Origin: an uncultured Clostridia bacterium
GTDB taxonomy: Bacteria > Bacillota > Clostridia > Christensenellales > HGM11417
Length of the DNA: 64,000 bases
Assembly: GCA_944332455.1 (NCBI GenBank)
Contig: CALVJY010000003.1
Location: 49,988 to 113,987 of the forward strand
Reading direction: 5' to 3'
The notes below the pieces were generated by a model that saw only the letters and a program-made list of their open reading frames with translations, did not search any database and was not told the DNA's origin. Numbering within the stretch: the first letter of the stretch is position 1; each line of letters opens with the position of its first letter. Positions 1,634-54,047 of this stretch are shown here, one piece after another. The position numbers were made by a program, and so were the translations under genes.

Positions 1634-1648
1634 ATTATTGAAAATTTT
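1634..1648 (+). repeat. AT-rich 15-mer motif copy, exact ATTATTGAAAATTTT
   Basis: Read directly from the sequence. Lies in the tgt/queA spacer. Confidence 0.9.
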
Positions 1649-1692
1649 GATATGGCATGGATGATTTCGGAAGATCGGTCCGGACAGCAGTT

Positions 1693-2715
1693 TTACACGA
1701 TCAGCATGGCGTCTCCGAAGCTGAAAAAGCGATAGCGCTCCCGCACGGCCAGATCATAAAGTTCCAGAATTTTTTCCCGTCCGGTCAGGGCCGCCACCAG
1801 CATGATCAGGGTGGATTCGGGGAGGTGGAAGTTGGTGATCAGCGCATCTACGCACTTGAAGCGATAGCCCGGATAGATGAAGATCGAGGTCTCGGCCCGG
1901 CAGGGCGAGACCATGCCGCGCTCGTCGGCGGCGCTCTCCAGGGTGCGGACCGAGGTGGTGCCCACGGCCACCACCCGGCGGCCGGCCGCCTTGGCCCGAT
2001 TGATCTGCTCGGCGGCTTCGGGGGAAATTTCGTAATGCTCGGAATGCATCTTGTGATCGGTGATCTCCTCCGCCTTGACCGGGCGGAAGGTCCCCAGGCC
2101 CACATGGAGCAGCACTTCGGCCCGCTCCACCCCCAGAGCCTCGATCTTTTTCAGCAGCTCGGGGGTGAAGTGCAGGCCCGCCGTGGGCGCGGCCGCGCTG
2201 CCGTCCACCTTGGCGTAGACCGTCTGGTAGCGCTCCTTGTCGGTCAGTTTTTCGTGAATGTAGTGCGGCAGCGGCATGGTCCCCACCCGGGAAAGGAGCT
2301 CCTCGAACACCCCTTCATAGCGGAATCGGACCACACGCCCCCCGAAGTCGGTGCTCTGCTCGACCACGGCAGAAAGTTGGTCGGAAAAGACAAACTCCGC
2401 CCCCGTCCTGGCCCGCCGGCCGGGCTTGACCATGACCTCCCAGCGATCCCGGTCCAGCCGCTTGAGGAGGAGAAATTCCATCCTGCCTCCGGTGTCCTTC
2501 CGGACGCCCTCCAGCCGGGCGGGCAGCACCCGGGTGTTGTTGACCACCAGCAGGTCGTCCGGGCGCAGGAAATCCGTCACCTGGGAAAACACGGTGTGCG
2601 TCACCTTGTCGAGCTTCCGGTCATAGACCATCAGCCGGGAACTGTCCCGGGGTTCAGCGGGATGCTGGGCGATGAGCTCTTCGGGCAAATGATAAAAAAA
2701 GTCGCTCGTCTTCAT
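1693..2715 (-). CDS. queA: S-adenosylmethionine:tRNA ribosyltransferase-isomerase
   Basis: 340-aa ORF. The N-terminus [30 protein letters not shown] is the classic QueA start. Adjacent to tgt. Confidence 0.95.
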
Positions 2716-2740
2716 CTGTTTTTCCTACGATCAAACCTGT

Positions 2741-2935
2741 CTCTCTTATGAGGATAAAAATTCAAAGTCCTTGCGATGGCACAAAGTTCCTGCCATGTTA
2801 AAACTTTTGAAGTCCTTATGATGATTCAAAGTGATGATCCAAAATTTTCGCAATGATACTCTGATACAAAGTTTCGCGATACAAAGTTTATATGATAAAA
2901 CTTTCAAAAATATTTTTTTGATGCGATAATGCCGG
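2741..2935. repeat. AT-rich spacer packed with CAAAGT / GATACAAAGTTT short repeats
   Basis: GATACAAAGTTT occurs at 2863-2874 and 2878-2889, and GATAAAACTTT at 2894-2904. CAAAGT occurs at 2763, 2782 and 2827. AAGTCCTT(G/A)(C/T)GATG occurs twice. A degenerate copy of the AT 15-mer (AAAATTTTCGCAATGAT) lies at 2841-2857. Confidence 0.8.
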
Positions 2936-2938
2936 ATC

Positions 2939-3973
2939 TCAGGTGTCATCCATGCGGATCTGCTGGGGTGCCGGCCGCGGGGGCTTTTCCCCCAGGTGTT
3001 CATAGGCCGCCGGCATCGCGCACCGCCCCCTGGGGGTCCGGTCGATGAATCCCAGCTGCAGCAGGTAGGGCTCGTAGACGTCCTCGATGGTGTTGCTGTC
3101 CTCGTTGATGGCGGCAGCCAGGGTGTCCAGCCCCACCGGTCCCCCGCGGAACTTTTTGACCAGGGCGGTCAGCAGCTGTTTGTCGATGTTGTCCAGCCCC
3201 AGGTGATCGATCTCCATCAGATCCAGGGCCTTGCGGGTGATCTCCTCCCCGATCTCGTCCTGGCCGGAGACCTCGGAAAAGTCCCGGACCCTTTTGAGCA
3301 GCCGGTTGGCGATGCGGGGGGTCCCGCGGGAACGCTTGGCGATCTCGCAGGCGGCGGCAAAGGAGATGGAGGTGCCCAGCTTTTTGGCCGAGCGGGAGAC
3401 GATGGTGGCCAGCTCCTCGGTGGTGTACATCTCCAGCCGGCAGATCACCCCGAAGCGATCCCGCAGGGGCGAGGTCAGCATCCCCGCCCGGGTAGTCGCC
3501 CCGATCAGGGTAAAGCGCGGCAGGTTGAGCCGCACCGATTTGGCCGACGGCCCCTTGCCGATGATGAAATCCAGCGCGAAATCCTCCATCGCGGGATAGA
3601 GGATCTCCTCCACGCTGCGGTTCAGGCGGTGGATCTCGTCGATGAACAGCACGTCCCCGTCCGCCAGATTGGTCAGGATGGCGGCCAGATCCCCCGCCCG
3701 CTCGATGGAGGGACCCGAGGTGATCTTGATCTGCCCGCCCATCTCGTTGGCGATGATGTGGGCCAGCGTCGTCTTGCCCAGACCCGGCGGGCCGTAGAGC
3801 AGACAGTGGTCCAGCGCCTCCCCCCTCTTTTTGGCGGCCGCCATAAAGACGGAGAGATTTTCCTTGACCTTGGTCTGTCCGACGTAGTCGTTCATGGTGG
3901 TCGGCCGAAGCTTGTTTTCGACCTCGGCCTCGGCCTCGCTGACCGTGCTTGTAAAAATTCTTTCTTCTTCCAT
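2939..3973 (-). CDS. ruvB: Holliday junction branch-migration helicase RuvB
   Basis: 344-aa ORF with Walker [15 protein letters not shown], the FIDEIHRL box, and the overall RuvB pattern. Confidence 0.97.
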
Positions 3974-4046
3974 ATCTCTTTCTGCGATCCGTGACTTTAA
4001 ACTTAAAATTTACGGGGAGCTTGAAATTTTGCGCTCTCTTCCCTCG

Positions 4047-4081
4047 ATCCACGCGACGGACCCAATAATCCACGCGACGGA
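4047..4081. repeat. Direct repeat ATCCACGCGACGGA x2 with 21-bp period
   Basis: Identical 14-mers at 4047-4060 and 4068-4081, 75-108 nt upstream of the ruvB ATG on the minus strand. Confidence 0.85.
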
Positions 4082-4112
4082 TCAAATTCCTGTTATTTTA
4101 CACTGAAAAATG

Positions 4113-4127
4113 ATTATTGAAAAATTA
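4113..4127 (+). repeat. AT-rich 15-mer motif copy (ATTATTGAAAAATTA)
   Basis: Read directly. Flanked by CACTGAAAAAT at 4101-4111 and 4132-4142. Confidence 0.8.
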
Positions 4128-4224
4128 GAGACACTGAAAAATTCCTTCTGGAGATGGCTCTCCGAAATCGCGGGCCACCTTTGCTCCCTTTTTTTCTGGC
4201 GGCCCTCCTGCTTTTTGCGGGCTT

Positions 4225-4812
4225 TTAAGAGAGAGATCTGAGGGCCATCGAGATGACGTCTTCCAACTTGGAGGCGCCCAGGGCCGAGGCTTTGGCCACG
4301 CTGGACTGCGCCTCCGCTCTGGAAAATCCCAGAGAGATCAGGGCCGAAACGGCCTCCTCGGATTCCGAAAGAGGGGCGGCTCCGGTCGGGATGCCGGACT
4401 GCTCCGCCTCCTCCTGCACCTTTTCCTTGAGTTCCAGAATGATGCGTTCGGCGGTCTTTTTGCCCACGCCCTTGATCCGGGTCAGGCGGGCGGCGTCCCG
4501 GGTGGCGATAGAGAGCGCCAGATCTTTGAGCGAGATGCCGGAGAGGATGGCCAGCGCGGCCTTGGGCCCCACGCCGGAGACCGCGATCAGCTTGCGGAAC
4601 ATCTCCTTTTCCTCCTTCCGGGCAAAGCCGTAGAGGGCAACGTCGTCCTCGGCGACCTTGTAGAAGGTGTACAGCTTGACCTCTCCCTTGGCCGAGGAGA
4701 GTTCGGCCGCCGTCTGGTTGGAGACGAACACTTCATATCCGATCCCCCCGCATTCGATGATCAGACTCCCCTCCGAGACTTCCTCGATCTTCCCTTTGAT
4801 GTAGGCGTACAT
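4225..4812 (-). CDS. ruvA: Holliday junction DNA helicase subunit RuvA
   Basis: 195-aa ORF beginning MYAYIKGKIEEVSEGSLIIECGGIGYEVFVS, with the helix-hairpin-helix block LIAVSGVGPKAALAILS. Confidence 0.95.
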   Translation of the reverse strand: MYAYIKGKIEEVSEGSLIIECGGIGYEVFVSNQTAAELSSAKGEVKLYTFYKVAEDDVALYGFARKEEKEMFRKLIAVSGVGPKAALAILSGISLKDLALSIATRDAARLTRIKGVGKKTAERIILELKEKVQEEAEQSGIPTGAAPLSESEEAVSALISLGFSRAEAQSSVAKASALGASKLEDVISMALRSLS

Positions 4813-4948
4813 AGGCGCTCCCTTCCGCGTTCCCGCGAGTCGTTTTGCTCTTTCCCTCCCCTTTGCCCAAACCTTTAAAGAGAGGCTTTAACGGGAAGGG
4901 TCATACAGTGCTTATGATCAAAAAGTGCTTAAAAAGAGTAAATAAAAG

Positions 4949-4963
4949 ATTATTGAAAAATTT
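4949..4963 (+). repeat. AT-rich 15-mer motif copy (ATTATTGAAAAATTT)
   Basis: Read directly. Abuts the ruvC stop codon at 4963-4965. Confidence 0.8.
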
Positions 4964-5454
4964 CAGATCCTGAAAAGCCGGGCCAGCGCATTGGTCTGAC
5001 TGTGGCAGAGGGCCACGGCCAGGGCGTCGGCGGCATCATCCGGACGGGGCACGGCCGGCAGGTTCAGGAAGGTCTTGACCATCTGCTGGATCTGACGCTT
5101 GTCCGCCCCGCCGTAGCCGGTCAGGGCCTGCTTGATCTGCATGGGGGTGTACTCGAACAGCTCGGGGCAGTGCCGCTGGGCCTCCACCAGAATGACCCCG
5201 CGGGCATGGGCCACCTGGATGCCGGTGGTCACGTTCTTGGCGAAGAAGAGCTCCTCCACCGCCACGGCGTCGGGATGAAACTGGATCATCAGCGCCTCGA
5301 TGCCCTTGCCCACCCGGACCAGACGCTTGGCCAGGTTTTCCTCCTTGGGCGTGGTGATCACGCCGTAGTCCACCGCCGTGTTTTTGTCCCCCTCCTTGCG
5401 GATCACGCCGTAGCCGACGGTCCCGTAGCCGGGGTCGATGCCCAAAATAATCAA
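4963..5454 (-). CDS. ruvC: Crossover junction endodeoxyribonuclease RuvC
   Basis: 163-aa ORF beginning (M)IILGIDPGYGTVGYGVI. It uses a TTG start preceded by GAGGTG, and carries the RNase H-like RuvC motifs. Confidence 0.92.
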   Translation of the reverse strand: MIILGIDPGYGTVGYGVIRKEGDKNTAVDYGVITTPKEENLAKRLVRVGKGIEALMIQFHPDAVAVEELFFAKNVTTGIQVAHARGVILVEAQRHCPELFEYTPMQIKQALTGYGGADKRQIQQMVKTFLNLPAVPRPDDAADALAVALCHSQTNALARLFRI

Positions 5455-5473
5455 GATGACACCTCGGTTTTTG

Positions 5474-5503
5474 TTGCAAAAAAGTCGGATTGTATATTAT
5501 AAT
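5474..5503 (+). promoter_or_regulatory. Sigma-A type promoter of argG (TTGCAA-18-TATAAT) overlapping an AT palindrome
   Basis: TTGCAA at 5474-5479 and TATAAT at 5498-5503. The -10 sits inside the near-perfect palindrome GTATATTATAATATTC. Confidence 0.55.
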
Positions 5504-5681
5504 ATTCAGAAGGGCGGCCTGCCCGAGGGCGACCGCGGCCCGTTACCTTTCATTATATAATTTATCCCGGCGTAAGTCAAGCCAATTCGCCCGAAGGGGC
5601 GGCCCCGGCGGCTTTCTTTTGTCGCCAGCCCCCTTTTCGGACCGGCGCCGGGTTCGGAGATCACAACAAGGAGAGAACACT

Positions 5682-6899
5682 ATGAGCAAAATGAAAGTGG
5701 TCCTGGCCTATTCCGGCGGACTGGACACCTCCATCATCATCCCCTGGCTGAAGGAGAACTACGACTGCGAAGTCATCGCCGTGGCCGGGGACGTGGGACA
5801 GGGCGAGGAGCTGGCCCCCTTAAAGGAAAAGGCCATCCGCACCGGCGCCTCCAAGATCTACATCGAGGATCTGCGGGAGGAGTTTGTCACCGACTTCATC
5901 TTCCCCACCGTCAAGGCCGGGGCGGTGTACGAAAACAAGTACCTGCTGGGCACCAGCTTTGCCCGTCCGGTCATCGCCAAGCGGCTGGTGGAGATCGCCG
6001 AGCGCGAGGGCGCCACGGCCATCTGCCACGGCGCCACCGGCAAAGGCAACGACCAGGTCCGCTTTGAGCTGACCATCAAGGCCCTGGCCCCCCAGATGAA
6101 GATCATCGCCCCCTGGCGGATCTGGGACATCAAGTCCCGCGAGGAGGAGATCGACTATGCCCAGGCCCGCGGCATCGAGGTGCCCGTCACCAAAAAGCGC
6201 CCCTACTCCATGGACCGGAACCTGTGGCATCTCAGCCACGAGGGGCACGACCTCGAGGACCCCAAAAACGAGCCCAAGGACGATCTACTTCTGATCTGCA
6301 ACACCCCCGAAAAGGCGCCGGACAAGCCCGAGTACGTGGAGATCGAATTTGAGCAGGGCATTCCCGTCCGCATCGACGGCAAGACCTATGATCCCGTCGC
6401 CCTCATCGAAAAGCTGAACGAGCTGGGCGCCAAGCACGCCATCGGCATCGCGGACATGGTGGAAAACCGTCTGGTGGGCATGAAGTCCCGCGGCGTGTAC
6501 GAGACCCCCGGCGGGACCATTTTGATGAACGCCCATCGGGAGCTGGAATCGCTGACCCTGGACCGCGCCACGGCCCACTACAAGGATCAGATGGCCATCA
6601 AGTTTGCCGAACTGGTCTATGACGGGCTTTGGTACACGCCCCTGCGCGAGGCCATGAGCGCCTTCGTGGACTCCACCCAGAAGACCGTGACCGGAAAGGT
6701 CCGCCTGAAGCTGTACAAGGGCAACTGCATCCCCGCCGGCATGGAGAGCCCCTACTCGCTGTACGACATGGAGATCGCCACCTTCGACAAGGACGAGGTG
6801 TACAACCAGAAAGACGCCGAGGGCTTTATCAACCTGTTCGGCCTCCCCCTCAAGGTCCGGGCCATGAAGCTGGGCAAGGACAAAGTGCTGGGGAAATAA
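5682..6899 (+). CDS. argG: Argininosuccinate synthase
   Basis: Start trimmed to ATG 5682 (RBS AAGGAGAG). [17 protein letters not shown] is the ATP-PPase motif. About 405 aa. Confidence 0.95.
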
Positions 6900-7026
6900 G
6901 ATCCCTTTTTAGACCGGAAACGGGCGGAAAAGCGCCGGAAAGTAAGAACTTAAAATTTTCAAAAATCATTTTTTTTCACAAAAGCCGGACGTTTTCCGGC
7001 TTTTTGACAAAACGAGGAGAAAGCTC

Positions 7027-8400
7027 ATGAAGATGTGGAGCGGCCGCTTTGAAAGCGACACCGACCAGCTTGCCGACCAGTTCAACGCCTCTCTGCCCTT
7101 CGATCACCGCCTCTTTCGGGAGGACATCGAGGGCAGCGTGGCGCACTGCACCATGCTGGCCGAATGCGGAATTTTGACCGAAGAAGAGAAGGATCGCATC
7201 GTCCGGGAACTGAACGTCATCCGCGGGGAGATCGAGTCCGGCGCCTTTGAGATGTCCGGCTCCGAAGACGTCCACATGTGGGTGGAGGGCGAGCTCATCC
7301 GGCGGCTGGGCGAGGTCGGCAAAAAGCTGCACACCGCCCGCTCCCGGAACGACCAGGTGGCCACGGATTTTCGCCTCTATCTGAAGAAGAGCATCGGCCG
7401 GATCCGGGAACTGCTGAAAGGGCTGATCGGGACCCTGCTGGACCTGGCCGAGGCCCACACCGAGACCGTCATGCCGGGCTACACCCACCTGCAGAAGGCC
7501 CAGCCGGTCACCCTGGCTCACCATCTGGAGGCCTATGCCGAGATGTTTTTCCGGGACGTCCTGCGTTTTTCGGACTGTCTGAAGCGGACGGACGTCCTGC
7601 CCCTGGGGTCCTGCGCCCTGGCCGGGACCACCTATCCCATCCGCCGTGAGCGCACGGCCGAGCTTCTGGGCTTCTCGTCGGTCTGCCGCAACAGCATGGA
7701 CGGGGTCTCGGACCGGGACTTCGCGCTGGAATTTCTGTTCTGCTGCGCGACGGCGGCCATGCACCTGTCCAGGCTCTCGGAGGAGATCGTGCTGTGGAGC
7801 ACGGACGAATTCCGCTTCATCACCATCGCGGACAGCTATTCCACCGGCTCCTCCATCATGCCGCAGAAAAAAAACCCGGACATGGCCGAACTCATCCGGG
7901 GCAAGTGCGGGCGGGTCTACGGCAACCTGACCGCCCTGCTGACCGTCATGAAGGGGCTTCCCCTGGCCTACAACAAGGATATGCAGGAGGACAAGGAGCC
8001 CGTCTTTGACAGCGAGGACACCCTGACGATCTGCCTTCGGGTGATGGATCAGCTGCTCCGGCACATCACCTTCCACGGGGACCGCATGCGGGCGGGAGCT
8101 TTGGGCGGCTTTACCAACGCGACGGACGTGGCCGACTATCTGGTCCGGCACGGCCTCCCCTTCCGAACCGCCCACGAGATCACCGGAAAGCTGGTACTCC
8201 GGGCCGAAAAAGAGGGAAAACGGCTGGAAGAGCTTCCCCTTTCGGTCTTCCGCGAGTACTCGGAGGCCTTCGGGGAGGATATCCTCGGCTGCCTGGATCT
8301 GGACGCCGTGGTCAACGGCCGGAAAGTGACGGGCGGCCCCGCCAAAGAGGCAGTCACGCAGAGCATCCGGGCCCTTCGGGAGGCCCTGAAGGAGGCATAG
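7027..8400 (+). CDS. argH: Argininosuccinate lyase
   Basis: 457-aa ORF beginning MWSGRFESDTD, with the SSIMPQKKNPD fumarate-lyase signature. Confidence 0.95.
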   Translation: MKMWSGRFESDTDQLADQFNASLPFDHRLFREDIEGSVAHCTMLAECGILTEEEKDRIVRELNVIRGEIESGAFEMSGSEDVHMWVEGELIRRLGEVGKKLHTARSRNDQVATDFRLYLKKSIGRIRELLKGLIGTLLDLAEAHTETVMPGYTHLQKAQPVTLAHHLEAYAEMFFRDVLRFSDCLKRTDVLPLGSCALAGTTYPIRRERTAELLGFSSVCRNSMDGVSDRDFALEFLFCCATAAMHLSRLSEEIVLWSTDEFRFITIADSYSTGSSIMPQKKNPDMAELIRGKCGRVYGNLTALLTVMKGLPLAYNKDMQEDKEPVFDSEDTLTICLRVMDQLLRHITFHGDRMRAGALGGFTNATDVADYLVRHGLPFRTAHEITGKLVLRAEKEGKRLEELPLSVFREYSEAFGEDILGCLDLDAVVNGRKVTGGPAKEAVTQSIRALREALKEA

Positions 8401-8436
8401 TACTCTGCAAAGCCCTTAAAATGCAGAGTACTATGC
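8395..8436 (+). repeat. Palindromic dispersed repeat, copy a
   Basis: GCATAGTACTCTGCA-aagcccttaaaa-TGCAGAGTACTATGC, a perfect 15-bp inverted repeat. The argH stop TAG (8398-8400) lies inside the left arm. Confidence 0.9.
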
Positions 8437-8752
8437 CATCAAAATTGATCAAAAAGTCCATAAAAGAAGCCGGAAGCGGCGAGTTTTGGCCCCTTGCGAG
8501 CCGGCTGTAAAACAGCAGGACCCTTTCCTCCTCGGCTCAGAAGAGACAGGACAGAATGGTCAGGAACGGCCTTTCCTCGTTCAATTGCCGACCTTTTTCA
8601 GCCGGGAAGAAGCAGGACAGGCCTTGAGATCGCAAAAACAGGCAAAACCTACACACCGTCACCCGGATCCTCTTGCCCCTACTCTTCCCTGAACCACACA
8701 GCTGCCCTGCCCCTACCCTCCTGACAGCCAGACAAGTAAACAAAATCAGACC

Positions 8753-8778
8753 AGACAGCCCGAGCGGCTGTCTTTTTT
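8753..8778 (+). terminator. Intrinsic terminator about 350 nt downstream of argH
   Basis: AGACAGCC-cgagc-GGCTGTCT followed by TTTTTT. Confidence 0.65.
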
Positions 8779-8951
8779 CATGTCCTCGCGGCCGTTTTAC
8801 ATGGGGAAAATAAGGTCTTTCAGCATCGAACGCCTCCCTCAAGGGCTTTGCATAAATCTCCATTCAGGTTTTTTCTGAAAAAATATGCTTTTCAACCTTT
8901 TAAATCGCTCAAGCCTTCTTTGATTCGACAACAGAGGCAACCTTCTTTTTC

Positions 8952-8978: not shown

Positions 8979-9019
8979 GAAAAAGAGGCGGCACCTACAT
9001 ATCACAAAGGAGGTCTGTT

Positions 9020-10567: not shown

Positions 10568-10835
10568 CGAAAAGACCTGTGCCGCGGGCTTTTGCCCGCG
10601 GCGCAGTCAAAACAGCAGTATAAATTTTATTATAAATTATTTTTGAATAATTTAATATAGAGTGAAAAATTCAAAATTGATCTTTGCACTGCCTAAGCTT
10701 CCGTATCATGAAAAACTTTTACCGCAGAGAACGGATTCTTTCTTTCTGCCATAGCTGATTTGAACCTTGCTAAGAACCTTTACCAGATGAAAGACTTTCA
10801 TCGCATGTACCCGGTCAATTTGACCTGTTTTGGAA

Positions 10836-11982: not shown

Positions 11983-12028
11983 CCGCATAGTACTTCAAAA
12001 ATCTGAGGATTTGCATAGTACTATGCGG
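11983..12028 (+). repeat. Palindromic dispersed repeat, copy b (also a likely terminator of the collagen/GT unit)
   Basis: CCGCATAGTACT-22 nt-AGTACTATGCGG followed by AAATTTTTTGC. It lies 23 nt after the GT stop. Confidence 0.85.
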
Positions 12029-19200: not shown

Positions 19201-19235
19201 AAAAAAAATTTCGGAAATTTTTCCGAAATTTTTTT
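19201..19235. terminator. AT-rich bidirectional hairpin terminator after ylmC
   Basis: AAAAAAAATTTCGG-aaattttt-CCGAAATTTTTTT. Confidence 0.6.
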
Positions 19236-23013: not shown

Positions 23014-23110
23014 CAGCAGAGTAGCTTAAGGTGCGTTAAGTGTTGCGGGATGGGATGTTGCCCGCAAACGAAAGAAGAAATTCTGCGGTACCTTTTGCGC
23101 GTCCGTTGCA
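23014..23110 (+). promoter_or_regulatory. THF (tetrahydrofolate, folT-motif) riboswitch aptamer
   Basis: The conserved blocks appear in order: AGAGTAG ... GCGTTAAGTG ... hairpin TTGCGGG/CCCGCAA around ATGGGATGT ... ACGAA ... GCGGT ... GCGCGTCCGTTGC. They match my recollection of the THF-I consensus (Rfam RF01831, Eubacterium siraeum structure). An ECF S-component gene lies downstream. Confidence 0.8.
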
Positions 23111-24843: not shown

Positions 24844-24858
24844 AAATCTTTCAATAAT
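24844..24858 (-). repeat. AT-rich 15-mer motif copy (reverse complement ATTATTGAAAGATTT)
   Basis: Read directly. Lies in the convergent spacer between flavin reductase and MATE. Confidence 0.8.
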
Positions 24859-27799: not shown

Positions 27800-27933
27800 G
27801 GCGATCGTTCTCCTTTTCGTTTTTCGGCGATCGGCGGCGCTCCCCTAGGGTTCCGCCTTTTCATTTTTTTCTATTATACCACAACAGTCCCGATTTTTCA
27901 ACTCAACCGGGCGCCTGTCCGGTTGAAATTCCC

Positions 27934-27971
27934 GCATAGTACTATGCAAAACACCCTGTTTTCATAGTACT
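27934..27971 (+). repeat. Palindromic dispersed repeat, copy c
   Basis: GCATAGTACTATGCAAAACACCCTGTTTTCATAGTACT, preceded by CCC. Confidence 0.9.
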
Positions 27972-29511: not shown

Positions 29512-29526
29512 ATTATTGAAAGATTT
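29512..29526 (+). repeat. AT-rich 15-mer motif copy (ATTATTGAAAGATTT)
   Basis: Read directly. It merges into the 33-bp tandem repeat. Confidence 0.8.
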
Positions 29527-29613
29527 TATATTACCATAAAGCCGCTCATTAAAAGATTTAATGCGTCTGTTAAACCTCTCATTGAAAGATTTTATATGAC
29601 TATAAAACCTCTG
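29515..29613. repeat. Three tandem 33-bp AT-rich repeats
   Basis: Unit 1 (29515-29547): ATTGAAAGATTTTATATTACCATAAAGCCGCTC. Unit 2 (29548-29580): ATTAAAAGATTTAATGCGTCTGTTAAACCTCTC. Unit 3 (29581-29613): ATTGAAAGATTTTATATGACTATAAAACCTCTG. Unit 3 covers the rsmE stop codon at 29600-29602. Confidence 0.85.
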
Positions 29614-34529: not shown

Positions 34530-34548
34530 TTAATAATTTTTGAATGTT

Positions 34549-35220
34549 TTACGATTGAAGTTTGTGGACGATGACCTGGGCGTGCTTGATGACCTTGTCT
34601 CCGTAGCGGTAGCCGTTGGCCACCACATTGGCTACGGTGTCGTCCTTTTCCGGCTCCGTGGTGGGCGCGGTCATGACGGCGTCGTGTTCGTTCAGATCGA
34701 AGGGCTTGCCTAGCGCCTCCATCCGTTCGACCCCGATCTCGCGCAGGGCGTCCTCGAACTGGCGGACGATCTGCTCCAGCCCCGCCCGGTCGGCGGGATC
34801 CCGGACCGAGTCCAGCGCCCTTAAAAAGCTGTCCAGCACGGGGACCACCTTCAGGGCCACCCGGCATTCGGCCTCCTCCTTGGCCTTGGCCGTGATCTCG
34901 GCGTTCCGCTTGCGGTAGTTGTCGAAATCCACCTGCAGCCTCTGGTAAAGGTTGCTGACGTCCGTGGCCTGGCTGACGATCTTTTCGGCCCGCTTGTACT
35001 TGGCCTTCTGCTCCTCCAGCTCCTTTTTCAGCTGCTCTTGTTCGGCGATCAGCTGGGAGTTTTCCTCCCGCAGGGCCTTGGAGAGCTCGACCAGGCAGTC
35101 CCGGTCCAGCTCCTCCACCTTGGGTTCGCCCCCTTCGGGGGCTCCCCCGGCGGCGGTCTCCGGCTGCTTTTTGGGGTCGGGGTTCTGCTGAAAATCTTGA
35201 TCCTGTTTATTCTCTTTCAT
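34549..35220 (-). CDS. grpE: Nucleotide exchange factor GrpE
   Basis: The C-terminal GrpE fold pattern is present (...YQRLQVDFDNYRKR...GYRYGDKVIKHAQV). ATG 35220 is preferred over 35229 because of AGGTGA spacing. Confidence 0.9.
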   Translation of the reverse strand: MKENKQDQDFQQNPDPKKQPETAAGGAPEGGEPKVEELDRDCLVELSKALREENSQLIAEQEQLKKELEEQKAKYKRAEKIVSQATDVSNLYQRLQVDFDNYRKRNAEITAKAKEEAECRVALKVVPVLDSFLRALDSVRDPADRAGLEQIVRQFEDALREIGVERMEALGKPFDLNEHDAVMTAPTTEPEKDDTVANVVANGYRYGDKVIKHAQVIVHKLQS

Positions 35221-36313: not shown

Positions 36314-36340
36314 TTAGCACTCTTTAAGCCAGACTGCTAA
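36314..36340. promoter_or_regulatory. CIRCE operator (HrcA binding site)
   Basis: TTAGCACTC-tttaagcca-GACTGCTAA, one mismatch to TTAGCACTC-N9-GAGTGCTAA. An extra TTAGCACTC half-site lies at 36291-36299. Confidence 0.85.
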
Positions 36341-36350
36341 ATTTGATTAT

Positions 36351-36379
36351 AATGTACCACTTTCCGAAAGAATTGTCAA
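36351..36379 (-). promoter_or_regulatory. Sigma-A promoter of the hrcA operon
   Basis: On the minus strand: TTGACA (36379-36374)-17-TACATT (36356-36351), immediately upstream of CIRCE. Confidence 0.7.
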
Positions 36380-36548
36380 GGGTTTGAGGGCACTTTTCCC
36401 AAAAAAATTTTCCGGGGCTTCCCTGCGGCCTCTCGACCCCCGCCGCGAGGGCGGCCTCTCCCCTTCAGTATGTGAAATCTTCCGCCCTTTCATGCCCGAG
36501 AGCCTTCCGGCCGGCACACTTTGCCGCGGGCCGCTCCCGACACAGCAA

Positions 36549-41966: not shown

Positions 41967-41981
41967 AAAATATTCAATAAT
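41967..41981 (-). repeat. AT-rich 15-mer motif copy (reverse complement ATTATTGAATATTTT)
   Basis: Read directly. One mismatch to the exact 15-mer. Confidence 0.8.
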
Positions 41982-46930: not shown

Positions 46931-46980
46931 GGCTGCACCTCCGCGCCGAACCTTTCGGATCGGCAGAATTTTTACATATA

Positions 46981-46995
46981 AAAATTTTCAATAAT
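46981..46995 (-). repeat. AT-rich 15-mer motif copy, exact reverse complement (AAAATTTTCAATAAT)
   Basis: Read directly. Lies in the spoIIIAF/AG spacer. Confidence 0.9.
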
Positions 46996-47053
46996 ATTTA
47001 TTTCTTTTAAATTATACTAGCTTTTATAAAAATCAGACCTTCGGCAGGCAGAC

Positions 47054-47521: not shown

Positions 47522-47570
47522 GAAGTCTCCTTTCCGGGCGCAAAAGCCCCGATCTCGGTCGATTTTTCCC

Positions 47571-47608
47571 GCATAGTACTCTGCAAAACACCCATTTTGC
47601 AGAGTACT
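47571..47608 (+). repeat. Palindromic dispersed repeat, copy d
   Basis: GCATAGTACTCTGCAAAA-caccca-TTTTGCAGAGTACT, a perfect 14-bp stem, followed by TTTTTC. Lies in the spoIIIAE/AF spacer. Confidence 0.9.
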
Positions 47609-47644
47609 TTTTCTGAAAAGGCCCTTTCGGCCCTCCGCTTTCCC

Positions 47645-48853
47645 CTAGGCCAGCACGGCGTTGGAGGAGAGAATGAACAGCATGACGGTGATGAAGAACA
47701 TGAAGGCCACGCCCAGCACGGCGGCGATCAGCAGGGAGAGATTTTTGCTGACCATGGTCAGGAAGGCGGGGATCTTTTTGTCGGCCAGCGGCTCGCAGAT
47801 CCCCGCGGTCAGCTTGAGGCCCAGCGAAAAGAGCAGGATCTGCAGAAGGGGCAGGATGACGATGCTCAGGATGATCAGCAGGCCGCAGACGCCGATGGCG
47901 TTTTTCAGCAGGACGCAGCTGCCCAGGATGAGGTCGAACCCCTCCTTCAGGTAGCCTCCTACGATGGGGATGGAGTTGCCGATGGCGTACTTGGCGGCCC
48001 GGATGGAGATGCCGTCATAGCCCGCGGCGGTGATCCCCTGGACCGAGAGGAAGGCGAAAAAGACGGTAAAGCAGATGCCGTTCAGCCACAGCCCCGCGCT
48101 CTTGAAAAAGTCGATGAGCTTTTCCAGGCTGATGTTTTCCGAGAGGTTGGAGATCACCGAGAGCACAGTGACCGCCATGAACACCGGCAGCACCACCGAG
48201 GCCACCACGGCGCTGACCCCGTTGGAGAGCACCGCGGACAGCGGCTGGAACAAATTCCCGGACATGACCCCGCCCGAGGCCGTCATCAGGGTGAGGATCA
48301 GCGGAAAGAGCAGGTTCATCAGATCCCGCAGGGTCTGCACGGTGTTTCCCGCCAGGTTCATCAAGGGGATCAGTACGCTGATGACGATGAGGACGATGGA
48401 GAGATAGCAGACAAAGTGGACGATCTCCCCCGTGTTCTTGCCCAGAAATCTGGCCCGCATGCCGTTGAGCAGGCCGCCGAGCAGGGCGATCATGATCACG
48501 CTGATCAGGGAGGGCAGAAAGGCCAGCAACCGGGAAAGAAGCAGTTGGAAGATCTGATCGAAAAATTCTTCGGCGTTCCCGGCCTGTCCGGCCAGCACCT
48601 CCCCCACCAGCTCCTCCAGGGTCAGCCCGCCGTAAAGGGAGCGGGTGTTTTCGTCCAGTTGGGCCAGAAATTCCTCGAACAGCTCGGTGTCCAGGGCCGA
48701 AAACTGCTCTTCGACCTCCTGTTCCAGGGCTTCCTCCACCGAATTGTATTCCTCTCCCACGGCCGTCTGTCCCGAAAAGAGGAAGAGCACCCCCAAAAGC
48801 AGCAGGGCGAGCAGGCGTATTTTTTTCCGGCGCGGCGACATTCTCTTTTTCAT
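47645..48853 (-). CDS. spoIIIAE: Stage III sporulation protein AE
   Basis: Start trimmed to ATG 48853 (MKKRMSPRRKKIRLLALLLL signal-like N-terminus). About 402 aa, polytopic. The 579-aa track ORF is an artefactual upstream extension. Confidence 0.85.
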   Translation of the reverse strand: MKKRMSPRRKKIRLLALLLLGVLFLFSGQTAVGEEYNSVEEALEQEVEEQFSALDTELFEEFLAQLDENTRSLYGGLTLEELVGEVLAGQAGNAEEFFDQIFQLLLSRLLAFLPSLISVIMIALLGGLLNGMRARFLGKNTGEIVHFVCYLSIVLIVISVLIPLMNLAGNTVQTLRDLMNLLFPLILTLMTASGGVMSGNLFQPLSAVLSNGVSAVVASVVLPVFMAVTVLSVISNLSENISLEKLIDFFKSAGLWLNGICFTVFFAFLSVQGITAAGYDGISIRAAKYAIGNSIPIVGGYLKEGFDLILGSCVLLKNAIGVCGLLIILSIVILPLLQILLFSLGLKLTAGICEPLADKKIPAFLTMVSKNLSLLIAAVLGVAFMFFITVMLFILSSNAVLA

Positions 48854-49236
48854 GGCAGTAAACTTAGGATGATCTCGATGACCGCGCTCAGCAGCGGGAG
48901 CGAGATGATCAAAATCAGCACCTTTCCTCCGAACAGGATTTTGTCCGCGATGCCCCGGCTTCCCGAGTCCTCGCAGATGTGGGCGGCAAACTCGGTGATG
49001 TATCCGATGCCGATGATCTTCAGGACGGCCTGCAAAATTTCCAGGTCGATGCCGGACTTGTCCATCAGGGCCTGGAGGGCCGAAATGGCCTCGGTCAGGT
49101 AGTTGACCACCGAGAACAGAATGAGGATCCCGGCCGCCAGACCGATCAGCACGGCGACGTCCGGGCGGTGTTCCCGGACGAAGAGGACCAGCAGGGAGGC
49201 CGTGATGCCGATGGCGGCGATCTTGAGGATTTCCAT
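48850..49236 (-). CDS. spoIIIAD: Stage III sporulation protein AD
   Basis: 128 aa. MEILKIAAIGITASLLVLFVREHRPD... matches SpoIIIAD. Confidence 0.85.
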   Translation of the reverse strand: MEILKIAAIGITASLLVLFVREHRPDVAVLIGLAAGILILFSVVNYLTEAISALQALMDKSGIDLEILQAVLKIIGIGYITEFAAHICEDSGSRGIADKILFGGKVLILIISLPLLSAVIEIILSLLP

Positions 49237-49239
49237 GGC

Positions 49240-49437
49240 CTAGTAAAGCGAAAAGAGATTTTTCAGGGTGTCGAACAGGGTGCCGATCATGCCGATGACC
49301 ATGCTCAGCACGATGACCAGCCCCGCCAGTGTGGTCAGGGTGGCCAGCTCCTCCTTGTCCGCCTTTTTCAGGATCTGACAGCACACCGCAGTCAGGATCC
49401 CGATGGCCGCGATCTTGAAGATGACCTCAACTTCCAT
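49240..49437 (-). CDS. spoIIIAC: Stage III sporulation protein AC
   Basis: 65 aa. IFKIAAIGILTAVCCQILKKADKEE... matches SpoIIIAC. Confidence 0.85.
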   Translation of the reverse strand: MEVEVIFKIAAIGILTAVCCQILKKADKEELATLTTLAGLVIVLSMVIGMIGTLFDTLKNLFSLY

Positions 49438-49450
49438 GCCTTGTCCCCTT

Positions 49451-49924
49451 TTACAGTAAAACGATACAGATCAAAAGTCCGGCCGTGAACCCCAGCTTGA
49501 CGTACATCGCGGCAAACTTCCTGCGCTCCCGCTCGGCCTCCTGCCGCAGCCGGGAAAACTCCTCCTCCGCCCGGGCCAGGATCTCCCCGGTCCGGCCGGC
49601 GTCCGATTTTCCCAGGGCCCGCAGCAGCTCGCACAGCCGCCGGAATTCCTCCTCCTTGAGGCCTGGATTCGGAAGGGGCTTTTCCCCGCCCTCCAGTCCC
49701 GCCACAAAGGCCCCGAGCAGATCCGAAAGGGTGCCAAGCTCCTCTCCCGCCCGCAGCAGAGCCGCGGGCAGGCGCTCCCGGAAGAAACAGAGGTCGTCCT
49801 TGAGCCGTACGATCAGCCGGAGGATCTCCCCCAGGATCTCCTCCCGGCGGAAGTAGGTGCGGGAGACGGCATAGCCGCAGTAGGTGGTGCAGGCCACGAT
49901 GCAGGCGCAGAGCAGGACGATCAT
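49451..49924 (-). CDS. spoIIIAB: Stage III sporulation protein AB
   Basis: 157 aa. TM helices at both termini and a helical middle region. Position fits. Confidence 0.75.
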   Translation of the reverse strand: MIVLLCACIVACTTYCGYAVSRTYFRREEILGEILRLIVRLKDDLCFFRERLPAALLRAGEELGTLSDLLGAFVAGLEGGEKPLPNPGLKEEEFRRLCELLRALGKSDAGRTGEILARAEEEFSRLRQEAERERRKFAAMYVKLGFTAGLLICIVLL

Positions 49925-50796
49925 TGCAGGGCATAGACCAACCGGGATCCGGCGTCGAACAGCCCCTCCACCGTGCCCCGGCCCCGCGCGGAGGAGAGCA
50001 CCGCAAAGCGCTCGAAGTAGCCGGCCGGAAAACCCTTCTTTTTCAGGTCAGACAGCCCCCCGGCGTGCACGGTGGCCACCACGCCCACGCCGGCCGCCTC
50101 CGCCTCCTTCAGAAAGGGAAGGTCCTCCTCCCCCCGAAGTTCGTCGCAGAGCACAAAATCCGGCGCCATGGCCCGGATCCCCATCAAAAAGCCCTCCCGC
50201 TTGGAGCAGTTTTTCAGGACGTCCAGATCCTGGGTCCCGGGCAGGCAGAGCTCGCCCCGCTCGTCCAGGAGCAGCACGTTCTTGCCCTCCCCGCTCAAAA
50301 GCCGGGCGACGTCCCGCAAAAGGGTGGTCTTGCCTCCCCCCGGCGGGGAGAGGATGAGCAGTTTTGTGACCCCGCTCCGGAAGGTCTCCGTCAAAAAGGA
50401 GGCGCACCCCCGGACCTCATGGGGCAGGCGGATGAGCAGGGCGTTGAGGTTTTTGAGGGCGGTCACCCGGCCCCGCTCGGTCACGCATTCCCCGCACAGT
50501 CCCAGGCGGATCCCCTCGCCCACGCTCAGAAAACCCTCCCGGATCTGGTGTTCATAGGCGTGCACCGAGTGATCGCAGGCCCGCAGAAAGATCCCGTCCA
50601 GGACCTCCCGGGAGGCCCTGACGGCCTGTCCCCGGTTCAGGGTCAGTCCCACGGGCGAACAAAAATACCGCCCCTGCGCGGTCTCGGCGAAGATCGGGCA
50701 GTTCAGCCGCAGGCGGATCTCAAAGATCTTTTCCTCGGCCTGCAGGCAGGCGTGCAGCGCAGGCGGCAGGATCTTTTTGAGGACGCTTTCTTTCAT
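49921..50796 (-). CDS. spoIIIAA: Stage III sporulation protein AA (secretion-type ATPase)
   Basis: 291 aa. ILPPALHACL...EIRLRLNCP at the N-terminus and Walker A SPPGGGKTTLLRD. Confidence 0.85.
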   Translation of the reverse strand: MKESVLKKILPPALHACLQAEEKIFEIRLRLNCPIFAETAQGRYFCSPVGLTLNRGQAVRASREVLDGIFLRACDHSVHAYEHQIREGFLSVGEGIRLGLCGECVTERGRVTALKNLNALLIRLPHEVRGCASFLTETFRSGVTKLLILSPPGGGKTTLLRDVARLLSGEGKNVLLLDERGELCLPGTQDLDVLKNCSKREGFLMGIRAMAPDFVLCDELRGEEDLPFLKEAEAAGVGVVATVHAGGLSDLKKKGFPAGYFERFAVLSSARGRGTVEGLFDAGSRLVYALQ

Positions 50797-50802
50797 ACCC
50801 TT

Positions 50803-50831
50803 ACCCTATGACGGACTTGTCCCGAATATGC
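50803..50831 (-). promoter_or_regulatory. Mother-cell (sigma-E type) promoter candidate abutting the spoIIIAA ATG
   Basis: On the minus strand: GCATATT-14 nt-CATAGGGT, then only 6 nt (AAGGGT) before the ATG. Confidence 0.4.
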
Positions 50832-50912
50832 CCGCTCCAGCCCCGATCTTCCCGTTTTTTTCTCATTTAAAAAGGAGGTCCCGGCCCGCTTCTGAATAAA
50901 TTTTAAAATATA

Positions 50913-50927
50913 AAAATGTTCAATAAT
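50913..50927 (-). repeat. AT-rich 15-mer motif copy (reverse complement ATTATTGAACATTTT)
   Basis: Read directly. One mismatch to the exact 15-mer. Confidence 0.8.
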
Positions 50928-51441
50928 GATTTTATTTTTAATTTTTATATATTTTCTCTTCGTCCGGAACAGAAAACCTCAGCCCTTCCGTCTGTCGACG
51001 GTTCATGGTATGCCTGATACAGCGGAAGGGCTTGTCACTGATTGCATTTTTCCTTTGCGTTTTTCGTGTCCCGGCAGGAAACGTGGTCGCCTCAGCCCGT
51101 CTCGGTTCAGGGCCTGCCAAAACCAAAAGGTCTTGGCTATGATCCTAGTTTTCTTATGTTAGATCCCGATTCCGGGGAAATGCTCCCGCCCTGTTTTGAC
51201 CCGACCTTTCGAGGCGGAATCTTATCCACGATCTTATTTTCGTTTCCTGTCCCGGCAGGGCCCCTTTGGCCCCGGTTCCGAAATGCATGAAAAGACCGAT
51301 CTTTGAAAACCGCGAAGCGGGCGCCCCTTTGTCTCTCCCGCGCGCCGCTGCAACAAAGTCCTGCGGCGCGCGCAACCTTCGCCTCTCCCATAAGCCGCTC
51401 ACAGACAAGGTCCTGCGGCGCTCGTTTTCGTCCGGCTTTTC

Positions 51442-51470
51442 GCATAATTTCGGGCCGATCTCTCATACTA
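51442..51470 (+). promoter_or_regulatory. Forespore (sigma-G type) promoter candidate abutting the DUF421 ATG
   Basis: GCATA-17 nt-CATACTA, then 8 nt before ATG 51479. I see no Shine-Dalgarno. Confidence 0.45.
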
Positions 51471-51478
51471 AGACCGGT

Positions 51479-52183
51479 ATGTACATCGTCTTTTTCCGAA
51501 GCATTTTTATCTTCGTCATTCTGCTGATCGTCATCCGGCTGATGGGCAAGCGGCAGATCGGGGAGATGCAGCCCTTCGAGCTGACCATCACCCTGATCAT
51601 CGCCGACCTTGCCACCATTCCGATGTCGGACACCTCCATCCCCCTGCTCTACGGGGTGGTCAGCATTTTTACCCTGTTCATCCTCCATCAGGTGATCAGC
51701 CTGATCGAGCGAAAGAGCCGTTTTCTGTCCGGGATCATCTCGGGGACGCCCACCATCGTCATCAACTCCAAGGGGGTCAACTTTCGGGAGATCGAAAGGC
51801 AGAATCTGAGCATTGACGACCTGCTGGAGAGCATCAGGGGAGCGGGCTACTCCAGCTTTGACGAGATCGCCTTTGCCATTTTCGAGACCAACGGCAAGCT
51901 GAGCGTCATTCCCAAAAAATCGGGAGATAAAAAGCCGGACCAGGCCGACAAGGCCGAACTGCCCATCGTGGTGATCGAACAGGGCAAGATCTCCGAACAA
52001 CAGCTGAAGGTGATGAAGCTGACCCCCGATTGGATCCGGGCCCGCCTCCGGGAACAGTCGATCCGGGATCTGAAAAAGGTGGAACTCTGCACTTTGGACA
52101 ACCACGGCAAGATGTTCCTGCAGATCAAGGACAAGGGGTACGAAGTGCTGAAAACGGACTACGAAGGGGGTGTGATCTGGTGA
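51479..52183 (+). CDS. DUF421 domain membrane protein (YetF/YdfS-like)
   Basis: Start trimmed to ATG 51479. MYIVFFRSIFIFVILLIVIRLMGKRQIGEMQPFELTITLIIADLA is the family N-terminus. Confidence 0.8.
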   Translation: MYIVFFRSIFIFVILLIVIRLMGKRQIGEMQPFELTITLIIADLATIPMSDTSIPLLYGVVSIFTLFILHQVISLIERKSRFLSGIISGTPTIVINSKGVNFREIERQNLSIDDLLESIRGAGYSSFDEIAFAIFETNGKLSVIPKKSGDKKPDQADKAELPIVVIEQGKISEQQLKVMKLTPDWIRARLREQSIRDLKKVELCTLDNHGKMFLQIKDKGYEVLKTDYEGGVIW

Positions 52184-52554
52184 AAAACTGGCTGATCCCC
52201 CTCCTCTTTCTGGCGCTGATCGTGGGCGGCGGCGTGCTGGAACAGGTGACCCTGAGCCGGCAGTTCGAGACCTTTGACCGCGAACTGGACGCCCTGGCCC
52301 AAAAGATCGAACAAAAGACGGCCACCGAGGAGGAAATGGACGAATTGGAACGGTGGTGGGACGAGGCAAAAAAGGTCATGCACACCTACATCCCCCACAC
52401 CGAGATCCGGGAGATCGACTACTGGCTGGCCGAGGCCAAAAGCCTGGTCAGGACCGGAAACTTTGAGCTGGCGGACGCCAAACTGACCGTGCTGCGCACC
52501 ATCACCTCCGCCCTGCCCGACAACTTCCGCATCAATTTTGAAAACCTTTTGTAA
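52180..52554 (+). CDS. DUF4363 family protein
   Basis: GTG start at 52180, overlapping the DUF421 stop (GTGA). About 124 aa, with an N-terminal TM and a helical body. The DUF421/DUF4363 pairing is typical. Confidence 0.7.
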   Translation: MKNWLIPLLFLALIVGGGVLEQVTLSRQFETFDRELDALAQKIEQKTATEEEMDELERWWDEAKKVMHTYIPHTEIREIDYWLAEAKSLVRTGNFELADAKLTVLRTITSALPDNFRINFENLL

Positions 52555-52560
52555 GACAAA

Positions 52561-52589
52561 AGACCTCCCCAGAAGGAAGGTCTTTTTTT
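52561..52589 (+). terminator. Intrinsic terminator after the DUF4363 gene
   Basis: AGACCTCC-ccagaa-GGAAGGTCT followed by TTTTTTT. Confidence 0.7.
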
Positions 52590-52610
52590 GCTATTTTTTT
52601 GATATAAATT

Positions 52611-52625
52611 ATTATTGAAAATTTT
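52611..52625 (+). repeat. AT-rich 15-mer motif copy, exact ATTATTGAAAATTTT
   Basis: Read directly. Confidence 0.9.
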
Positions 52626-52646
52626 ATGATAACAAATTCTTGTGCT

Positions 52647-53273
52647 TCAGAGGAGCCAAAACAGCAGGGCGGCGCACAGCCCCCACCCCAAGAGGAGGCA
52701 CAGCGCGAAGATCAGCCAAGACGGCGCGGACAACGGCTCTTCGTCCGGTCCGCCCGCCGGCAGCACCCGTCCGGAGAGAGAATCCAGCACCCAGAAACCG
52801 CCCTGCGGACGGGAGACAGCCGCCTGCCAGACGGGGAGAAAGCACAGACACTCGACCCGCTCCTCCTGTTTGAAAAAGGAAGAGCCGGGTTCCCCGTTTT
52901 CCGCGGAGGGAAAGAGCCTCCCCTCGTCCAGGGCCACCCGGTCGATTTCCCCCGGCGCGGCCTCGCGGCGCCAGCGGCGAAGCCGGCCGGCCGGTGCGTT
53001 CAGCGCCCGGAGCTTTTTTCCCCTGCGCACAAAGATCACCGGATAGTAGGCCCTTTGGATCTCTGCCTCCCGGAAGTCCGGCATTTTCCGGCGGCAGAGG
53101 GAGAGGATCTCCTCCTCCCCCTCGGGCCGGCCGCAGACAAACACCTTTCCTTCCCGCCGGAGGCGTTCGATCTCGCAGAGGCAGTCGCTGCTCAGCCCTT
53201 CGTAGTCCAGCAGACAGAGGGGCCTGGCCCTCCCCTTCGCCCCCGACTTTTTTTCGTTTGACGCCCGCTTCAT
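52647..53273 (-). CDS. Hypothetical tail-anchored membrane protein (208 aa)
   Basis: Start trimmed to ATG 53273. Arg/Cys-rich soluble part and a single C-terminal TM (WLIFALCLLLGWGLCAALLFWLL). I recognise no family. Confidence 0.45.
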   Translation of the reverse strand: MKRASNEKKSGAKGRARPLCLLDYEGLSSDCLCEIERLRREGKVFVCGRPEGEEEILSLCRRKMPDFREAEIQRAYYPVIFVRRGKKLRALNAPAGRLRRWRREAAPGEIDRVALDEGRLFPSAENGEPGSSFFKQEERVECLCFLPVWQAAVSRPQGGFWVLDSLSGRVLPAGGPDEEPLSAPSWLIFALCLLLGWGLCAALLFWLL

Positions 53274-53375
53274 CCTTTGTCTGATCCCTCGTTTTCGTCC
53301 CTTCGCTGCCTCTATTATATACGAATATTTTTCGTAAGTCAATAATTTTACGAATATTTTTAGTAAAATCAAGGT

Positions 53376-53582
53376 ATGGAAAAAATTACTTTGCGCATCC
53401 GGGAACTTCGGAAGGAGCGGAAGATGACCCAGACCCAGCTGGCAGAACTTCTGGCCACCACCCAGGACACCGTTTCGCTGTGGGAGCTGGGCAAAAGCTA
53501 CCCCGACATCCCCTCTCTGGTCCGGCTGTGCGACATCTTCGACGTCTCGGCGGACTATCTTTTGGGACGGTCCGACTACTGA
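53376..53582 (+). CDS. XRE-family helix-turn-helix transcriptional regulator (68 aa)
   Basis: LRIRELRKERKMTQTQLAELLATTQDTVSLWELGKSYPDIPSLVRLCDIFDVSADYLLG is a canonical HTH_3 domain. Confidence 0.85.
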   Translation: MEKITLRIRELRKERKMTQTQLAELLATTQDTVSLWELGKSYPDIPSLVRLCDIFDVSADYLLGRSDY

Positions 53583-54032
53583 ACAAGTTTGCCCGTCGCC
53601 ATCCCGGAGAGAAATTTCCGGCAATTTCCTTTCCCTCCTGAAGTCCTTTTCACGGCCGCTCCCGGCCGCCCGGAAAGAACGCCCGCGGCTGCTGCCGTAC
53701 CATCTCGCAATCATTCACGGCTGCCGGCGCATCATTCCTAAAATCATTCACGGATTGGCTCGCCATCCCGGAATGGTCTTCGTCCGTCCTGCCCTCCCGG
53801 AGCCTTCCGGTTTCTTTCCTGGCCGAAGAAGTTCCCGCTTGTCCTTTCCCCGGAGGCCGACTTTTCCGCCTCCCGAAGGAAAACCCGCCCCCTCTCCCGC
53901 AGAATTTTTTCCGCTTCTGCCGATCCGGCCCGCCTTTCAGGGCCGCTTTCACGTTCTGATCGTCAAGGGACAAAAAAAGAACGCGCTCCCTCGGTTCGCG
54001 TTCTTTTTTCCATAAAATCCGGACATAAAAAG

Positions 54033-54047
54033 ATTATTGAAAATTTT
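54033..54047 (+). repeat. AT-rich 15-mer motif copy, exact ATTATTGAAAATTTT
   Basis: Read directly. Confidence 0.9.

Follow-up and report, generated by a model that had tools for sequence, protein, structure and literature searches.

We have discovered a family of short, A/T-only repeats in the intergenic DNA of an uncultured Clostridia bacterium, in a stretch of 64,000 nucleotides (contig CALVJY010000003.1, positions 49,988 to 113,987; here called the window). The family is non-palindromic and fills the non-promoter spacers of a GC-rich, spore-forming lineage. Its copies are variants of the 15-mer ATTATTGAAAATTTT and contain a constrained core, ATTATTGAA, within a block of ~22-28 bp, and some copies reach ~43 bp. 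The motif belongs to a known kind of element, the short dispersed intergenic repeat. It is genuinely enriched, restricted to one clade, found at expanded gene junctions, divided into subfamilies that arose by duplication, excluded from promoter-bearing spacers and conserved in position between species while its flanks have been randomised. It does not function as a promoter or CodY operator, nor as a terminator hairpin or RNA element. Our leading hypothesis, which we hold tentatively, is that the motif is a dispersed repeat of genus-level range, was spread by copying and may now be an orientation-independent recognition site in duplex DNA for a putative protein.

The window makes up bases 12476-76475 of a metagenomic scaffold 192 kb long (ENA ERZ28613748), has a G+C content of ~60% and, by cumulative GC skew, lies entirely on one replichore. 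Pfam matches support the gene names tgt, queA, ruvB, ruvA, ruvC, argG, argH, rsmE, mtaB, spoIIIAA-AH and dnaK/grpE, among others. A 9.5-kb extension of the contig, in which the his operon is situated, brought the source DNA to ~74 kb, and motif copies occur at his, arg and spoIIIA loci. A sister species was found through RuvA, MtaB and SpoIIIAE searches (82%, 77% and 92% identity, respectively), and its contigs supplied 41 kb of syntenic DNA at 54% G+C. Four more distant relatives (54-59% identity) served as outgroups. The nearest GTDB representatives by RuvB, uncultured Clostridia or Christensenellales-type genomes, are at most 74% identical and were therefore used as negative controls only.

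A first-pass annotation of the window had reported exact copies of ATTATTGAAAATTTT at 1634, 52611 and 54033 on the plus strand and at 46981 on the minus strand, and had estimated that chance would give well below one. All four were found, and when up to two mismatches are allowed the window holds 14 sites against 0.05 expected from whole-window shuffles; two of the 14, at 46-60 (inside yajC) and at 61879, are probably chance matches. Because the window is so rich in G+C, enrichment was re-tested inside AT-rich islands alone, using 57 islands (6.7 kb, the extension included) and 1000 dinucleotide shuffles. Within the islands, ATTATTGAAAATTTT with up to two mismatches occurs 15 times against 0.39 expected and ATTWTTGAA 18 times against 1.05 expected, counts that none of the 1000 shuffles reached, and the enrichment thus exceeds what A/T-rich composition predicts. 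No other 8- or 9-mers are nearly as over-represented as ATTATTGA(A) and ATTATTGAA, which are present in 12-13 of the 57 islands where a second-order Markov model predicts 0.2-0.4. A profile search of 73.5 kb returned ~16 clear copies and a few weak ones, with the column consensus aAAaAAAa.ATTATTGAAAATTTT.AtAT and information content peaking at ATT-TTGAA. The A-rich upstream and (T)ATAT downstream flanks, on whose agreement the annotation had remarked, are real and weaker than the core. Motif density is ~1 per 4 kb, and coding DNA is nearly free of it (0-1 of 19 copies; one of 19 ATTWTTGAA sites falls outside the AT islands).

The remaining copies listed by the annotation were also recovered: the variants at 4949, 41967 and 50913 carry one mismatch, those at 4113, 24844 and 29512 carry two ungapped mismatches, and the degenerate copies at 2841 and 29581 read AAAATTTTC-GC-AATGAT and, as a partial match, ATTGAAAGATTTTATATGAC. 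Copies at 2897 and 6952 on the minus strand, and weaker ones at 10632 and 34531 on the plus strand, had been overlooked.

The genomic niche of the motif is narrow. Copies are confined to intergenic AT islands and mostly lie 0-100 nt from the upstream stop codon, as first described. The housekeeping junctions said to be inflated by the motif are indeed long: they measure 100-250 bp and are A/T-rich in the source organism and the sister, whereas in the distant relatives ruvC-ruvA spans 27-55 bp, ruvA-ruvB spans 21-37 bp and rsmE and mtaB overlap. Among 43 spacers classed by hand, 15 have a strong promoter-like site and 12 have the motif (14 with weak copies included), yet in none of the 43 does the motif occur together with a strong sigma-A promoter (P=0.002). 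Copies are found in four of six convergent spacers, nine of 30 co-directional spacers and one of seven divergent spacers. For five or six copies, a separate terminator hairpin is found 16-31 nt away, on the ATTATT side in five of them. Orientation is balanced (6+/6-) on a single replichore, which argues against replication bias, and is also approximately even relative to transcription.

The motif passes the check that the annotation had set for it at orthologous spacers in relatives: its position is conserved in the closest relative. Nine orthologous spacers were compared (argG>argH, ruvC>ruvA, ruvA>ruvB, ruvB>queA, queA>tgt, rsmE>mtaB, grpE>dnaK, spoIIIAF>AG and upstream of spoIIIAA), and in all nine the sister has a core with no more than one mismatch, matching in position and orientation; in the queA>tgt spacer the sister core has decayed to ATTATTTAA. 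When source and sister were aligned on the core, identity was 0.91 in the core, a value inflated because the core served as the anchor, and fell to 0.5-0.6 over the adjoining 10-12 nt on each side and to 0.35 farther out, which is the random level for A/T-rich DNA. Nine correctly oriented cores in nine spacers, each within one mismatch, are far beyond chance despite the anchoring. Between strains, the ruvA>ruvB spacer of a strain with 99% RuvA identity is 86% identical overall, and the block TAATTTTTCAATAAT-ATTTTT within it is invariant, which indicates that the core is under constraint and is no decaying relic. The sister also has one copy of its own, in the argG 5' region.

Beyond this pair of species the motif disappears. 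ATTWTTGAA occurs seven times in the AT islands of the sister against 1.0 expected, and once in the four distant relatives against 1.2 expected, and no copies were found in the GC-rich RuvB relatives. By these comparisons, the motif is restricted to the source organism and one sister species. A literature search with motif sequence strings returned primers and unrelated sites only, and a scan of viral contigs for the 20-mer gave 21 single matches, one on each contig and several of them in giant viruses, that were judged to be chance.

The copies are also related to one another. They fall into subfamilies with 25-44 bp in common at 88-93% identity: subfamily A at 1634 and 4113; subfamily B at 41967, 46981 and 50913 (~43 bp); and subfamily C at 24844, 29512 and 29581. 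The subfamily B extension is also present in the sister orthologs, so the subfamilies are older than the split of the two species, an age that argues for duplication followed by long retention and not for independent convergence.

We hypothesize that copies spread by copy-and-paste or gene conversion in the common ancestor of the two species, with the motif tolerated only where promoters would not be disturbed. The copies would now be retained by a trans-acting protein, encoded by the lineage, that may read duplex DNA irrespective of orientation; a nucleoid-associated protein, or a boundary or roadblock protein acting at 3' ends, would be the likeliest reader. Such a constrained protein-binding site is suggested by cores that are kept at orthologous positions while their flanks diverge. 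Several points weigh against this hypothesis. The cognate protein is putative and its binding is deduced from DNA sequence, and hundreds of 3'-end sites are atypical of a regulator. Conservation could stem from selfish maintenance or biased DNA uptake instead of host function. The samples are small (~74 kb and 41 kb), gene and spacer classes were partly hand-curated, and the anchoring favors the core. The presence of the motif goes with an expansion of operon junctions across the clade, and the motif is clearly constrained; a reader protein, if found, would explain how and why housekeeping operons such as ruvCAB-queA-tgt, his, arg, dnaK and spoIIIA were respaced. The motif is also a practical marker of the clade in metagenomes.

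The main alternative is that the motif is a selfish mini-repeat without host function, copied into spacers that tolerate it, occupying the niche of repetitive extragenic palindromes (REPs) and miniature inverted-repeat transposable elements (MITEs) and homogenised by a transposase, a recombinase or gene conversion. This is possible, and we consider it doubtful. Like the REPs and bacterial interspersed mosaic elements of Proteobacteria, the motif is short, high-copy, lineage-specific and extragenic at 3' ends or inside operons; it avoids promoter regions, takes both orientations, is often beside terminators and is rare between divergent genes. The expansion of its spacers relative to the outgroups and the duplication implied by its paralogous subfamilies, also features of MITEs, point the same way, as does the invasion of the same AT islands by a mobile MITE-like element and by a second, hairpin-forming repeat family. 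REPs, however, are palindromes of 20-40 bp that fold into stem-loops and bear GTAG or CGTC tags (PMC3733652), while the motif is all A/T, has no palindrome or hairpin and is no more structured than shuffled sequence. Its niche is that of REPs and uptake sequences, yet it is A/T-only, unstructured and housed in a GC-rich Clostridia lineage.

The comparison with MITEs could be made within the window itself. A 175-bp MITE-like element at 54046-54220 has a TTAA target duplication, ~18-bp imperfect terminal inverted repeats (GGCAGCACYGCACGAAGA) and a fold z of -6. A copy 92% identical to it is found in the rsmE>mtaB spacer of the 97.7%-identical strain L095 (~822-1000), at a site that is empty in the window. 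Each of the two insertions is at a TTAA just 3' of TTGAA..TTTT, a placement shared by only ~2% of island TTAA sites. This element therefore has terminal inverted repeats, a target-site duplication and insertion polymorphism between strains, and none of the three was seen for the motif: neither terminal inverted repeats nor target-site duplications could be found around its copies, and every compared copy is present in both strains, nearly all being ancestral and in place. Whole motif spacers are mostly not MITE-like in folding, with z from +0.8 to -3. If the motif were nonetheless only a selfish relic, it would be one more bacterial repeat of an ordinary sort.

A bolder form of the protein-recognition hypothesis, which strikes us as unlikely, is that a dedicated protein reads the motif as a signature of the genus. 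The motif would then be either the first uptake-signal-like sequence in a Firmicute, abundant through biased uptake and recombination, or a site for a new nucleoid protein, of the 3'-end boundary or insulator type, that would have turned once-tight operons into spaced gene arrays. REP elements and uptake sequences have in the past led to dedicated machineries, namely domesticated transposases and DNA-uptake receptors.

A promoter function is less likely again. By this account the motif would be part of an internal promoter, as an UP element with a TTGAAA -35 or, in longer copies, an extended -10, and would provide weak promoters of their own to formerly co-transcribed genes. It does contain a TTGAAA hexamer after an A/T-rich tract, as a sigma-A -35 with an UP element would, and motif spacers have no canonical promoters. 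TAAAAT-like hexamers are near some copies, for example at 4123-4095 (TTTTCA-17-TAAAAT), after 46981 (TATGTAAAAAT) and upstream of spoIIIAA in the sister (TATGATAAAAT). In the forward direction, however, no consistent -10 is found 16-18 nt after TTGAAA in any of the copies or their sister orthologs; one of 12 copies pairs TTGAAA with a weak hexamer (1638-1665, 9/12 positions). In the reverse complement, TTTTCA-17-TAAAAT is found in subfamily A only, and the TAAAAT beside 4113 is not conserved in the second strain (99% RuvA identity). Variable orientation had already led the annotation to doubt a simple promoter, and the near-even orientation relative to flanking genes agrees, as do the copies between convergent genes (four in the window and one in the extension). 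In strain L095, the MITE splits the best candidate promoter of the rsmE>mtaB spacer. The organism's genuine promoters are canonical (TTGACA-17-TATAAT, 10-12/12 positions) and are kept in the sister. The motif also fits none of the sigma-H, sigma-E and sigma-K consensus sequences.

RNA-level readings were rejected as well. Contexts of 55 nt fold no better than shuffles on either strand (minimum free energy z -1.5 to +2), and the motif itself has no hairpin with which to form an intrinsic terminator. Inspection revealed neither hidden dyad symmetry nor three-frame stop codons, and a tRNA scan found nothing at motif copies. No copy was matched in an Rfam covariance-model scan of the window, whose sole match was a tetrahydrofolate riboswitch (RF01831, 80 bits) at 23015-23110 on the plus strand, 3' of a TTGACA-17-TACAAT promoter.

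By analogy, the motif could also be a signal for DNA uptake, abundant through biased uptake and recombination of same-species DNA, though we regard this as very unlikely. The overall pattern fits well. Uptake sequences number in the hundreds to thousands in Pasteurellaceae and Neisseriaceae (PMC2346458) and show genus-level 'dialects' (PMC3630211), and terminators have been related to DNA uptake (PMC1852404). The motif, like the uptake signal sequences of Pasteurellaceae and the DNA uptake sequences of Neisseriaceae, has a short asymmetric core (9-12 bp in those systems) with a weaker flank consensus of A/T tracts; it is highly over-represented in both orientations, specific to its lineage and common to close relatives only, kept at orthologous sites, often located by terminators and not linked to gene function. 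It differs in being almost wholly intergenic, given that uptake sequences also occur within genes (PMC2817400). Its density of ~1 per 4 kb and its Firmicute host are further differences. Known uptake sequences occur at ~1 per kb in demonstrably competent organisms, and we know of no uptake specificity in any Firmicute; the prior is low for this phylum.

The least probable account, and one that we give hardly any weight, is that a conventional global transcription factor, for example CodY, Spo0A, AbrB or ScoC, uses the motif as its operator. The annotation had pointed out that GAAAATT equals one CodY half-site, and the motif does have in common with the CodY box (AATTTTCWGAAAATT) its A/T-richness and a 7-8 nt half-site, (W)GAAAATT; the copies at his, arg and spoIIIA loci would also suit such a regulator. 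This lead failed. The CodY box is a 15-bp dyad, whereas the motif has no dyad symmetry, no copy is within three mismatches of the box, and constraint is highest at ATTATTGAA, not in the GAAAATT half. The G and C positions of the Spo0A box (TGTCGAA) have no counterpart in the core, and the motif is absent from relatives that would be expected to share such regulators. The wider proposal of a global-regulator operator fits poorly too, as the copies avoid promoter-bearing spacers and favor operon junctions and convergent 3' ends. Fur/PerR, IHF, Fis, H-NS, Rex, ARG box and Spo0A box sites, and the dif/XerD arm, RTP Ter site and boxA, were compared by eye and gave partial matches only, of the kind expected in A/T-rich DNA and hence of value as leads only.

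The individual copies are described here in order along the window. The exact copy at 1634..1648 (+) runs antisense to queA and tgt in the spacer between them and reads TTCAATAATtATTTaTTCAGTGcAAAATAAaC in the gene direction. The degenerate copy at 2841..2857 is on the minus strand (the sequence given above is that of the plus strand). The two-mismatch copy ATTTTTGAAAGTTTT at 2897..2911 (-) has the same sense as ruvB and queA, whose spacer it occupies, and its sister ortholog is ATTATTGAAAATTTA. The two-mismatch copy at 4113..4127 (+) is in the ruvA>ruvB spacer, and the sister has its core. In the same spacer, TCCGTCGCGTGGAT is duplicated in tandem at 4040-4085, and the second strain has an 18-bp indel there, showing that these spacers evolve by slippage too. 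The one-mismatch copy at 4949..4963 (+), in the ruvC>ruvA spacer, abuts the ruvC stop codon, and its core is also found in the second strain and the sister.

The one-mismatch copy at 6952..6966 (-) occupies the argG>argH spacer; a hairpin followed by a T-run is 18 nt away, and the sister is arranged alike. A terminator-like hairpin in this junction, AAAAGCCGGA..TCCGGCTTTTT at 6975-7005, lies ~20 nt upstream of the argH start and is kept in the sister; between the hairpin and the ribosome-binding site there is no room for a promoter. A weak copy, ATTTTTGAATAATTT, was found at 10632..10660 (+) by profile search (E=0.23). The two-mismatch subfamily C copy GAAAGATTTT at 24844..24858 (-) is between two convergent genes, for a flavin reductase and MatE, with the MatE terminator 16 nt away, and is intact in strain L095. 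The rsmE>mtaB spacer has two subfamily C copies, a two-mismatch copy at 29512..29526 (+), where the sister has TTTTCAATAATAA, and the partial copy at 29581..29600 (+), located 69 nt 3' of it on the same strand. A weak copy at 34531..34557 (+) is in the grpE>dnaK spacer, where the sister again has ATTATTTAA.

The one-mismatch subfamily B copy at 41967..41981 (-) is between convergent polysaccharide-synthase and mrp/parA genes, 31 nt past a terminator at 42039-42013. The exact copy at 46981..46995 (-) lies between spoIIIAF and spoIIIAG and has the same sense as both; its sister ortholog keeps AAATAAATTATTATTGAAAATT. The one-mismatch copy at 50913..50927 (-) is ~115 nt upstream of spoIIIAA, within a ~32-bp block that is kept in the sister, and ~80 nt upstream of a conserved sigma-E-like promoter. 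That promoter, GCATATTC-N13-CATAGGGTA (50797-50831, minus strand; L094 ~205-241), holds a SpoIIID-like GGACAAG box and stops ~6 nt short of the spoIIIAA start codon as called, where no ribosome-binding site is evident; spoIIIAA may have a leaderless transcript or a miscalled start codon. The exact copy at 52611..52625 (+) is between convergent DUF4363 and 208-aa genes, 28 nt past a terminator hairpin. The last exact copy, at 54033..54047 (+), is in the convergent spacer between a helix-turn-helix (HTH) gene and an ABC-2 gene, with a hairpin 5' of it and the 175-bp MITE-like element abutting its 3' end; before that insertion, the copy abutted the stop codon of the ABC-2 gene.

The second repeat family, TTGCAKAGTACTATGC, has the palindrome GCATAGTACTATGC at its center and gave 11 matches against 0.11 expected. 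Copies are found at 8395-8438, 12011-12028, 27932-27949, 47571-47612 and 56096-56113, and paired copies at two loci form 14-bp stems around CAAAA..TTTTG. This family is kept at orthologous spacers of the sister (mtaB-hit and spoIIIAE-AF). Unlike the main motif, it can sit just upstream of promoters, which gives it an operator-like look.

Other elements were observed in the window. A 34-bp A/T-rich perfect-type palindrome, AAAAAAATTTCGGAAATTTTTCCGAAATTTTTTT, is located at 19202-19235, and a related sequence is present at ~63740. A CIRCE element (controlling inverted repeat of chaperone expression), TTAGCACTC-N9-GACTGCTAA, at 36314-36380 has one mismatch to the consensus and adjoins the hrcA promoter (TTGACA-17-TACATT), and both are kept in the sister. 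The region 53305-53399 has a pair of operator-like repeats, TACGAATATTTTTNGTAA, that overlap a TTGACT-17-TATAAT promoter by a 63-aa Xre-type HTH gene, and the -35 context of this promoter, ATTATTGACT, resembles the motif core.

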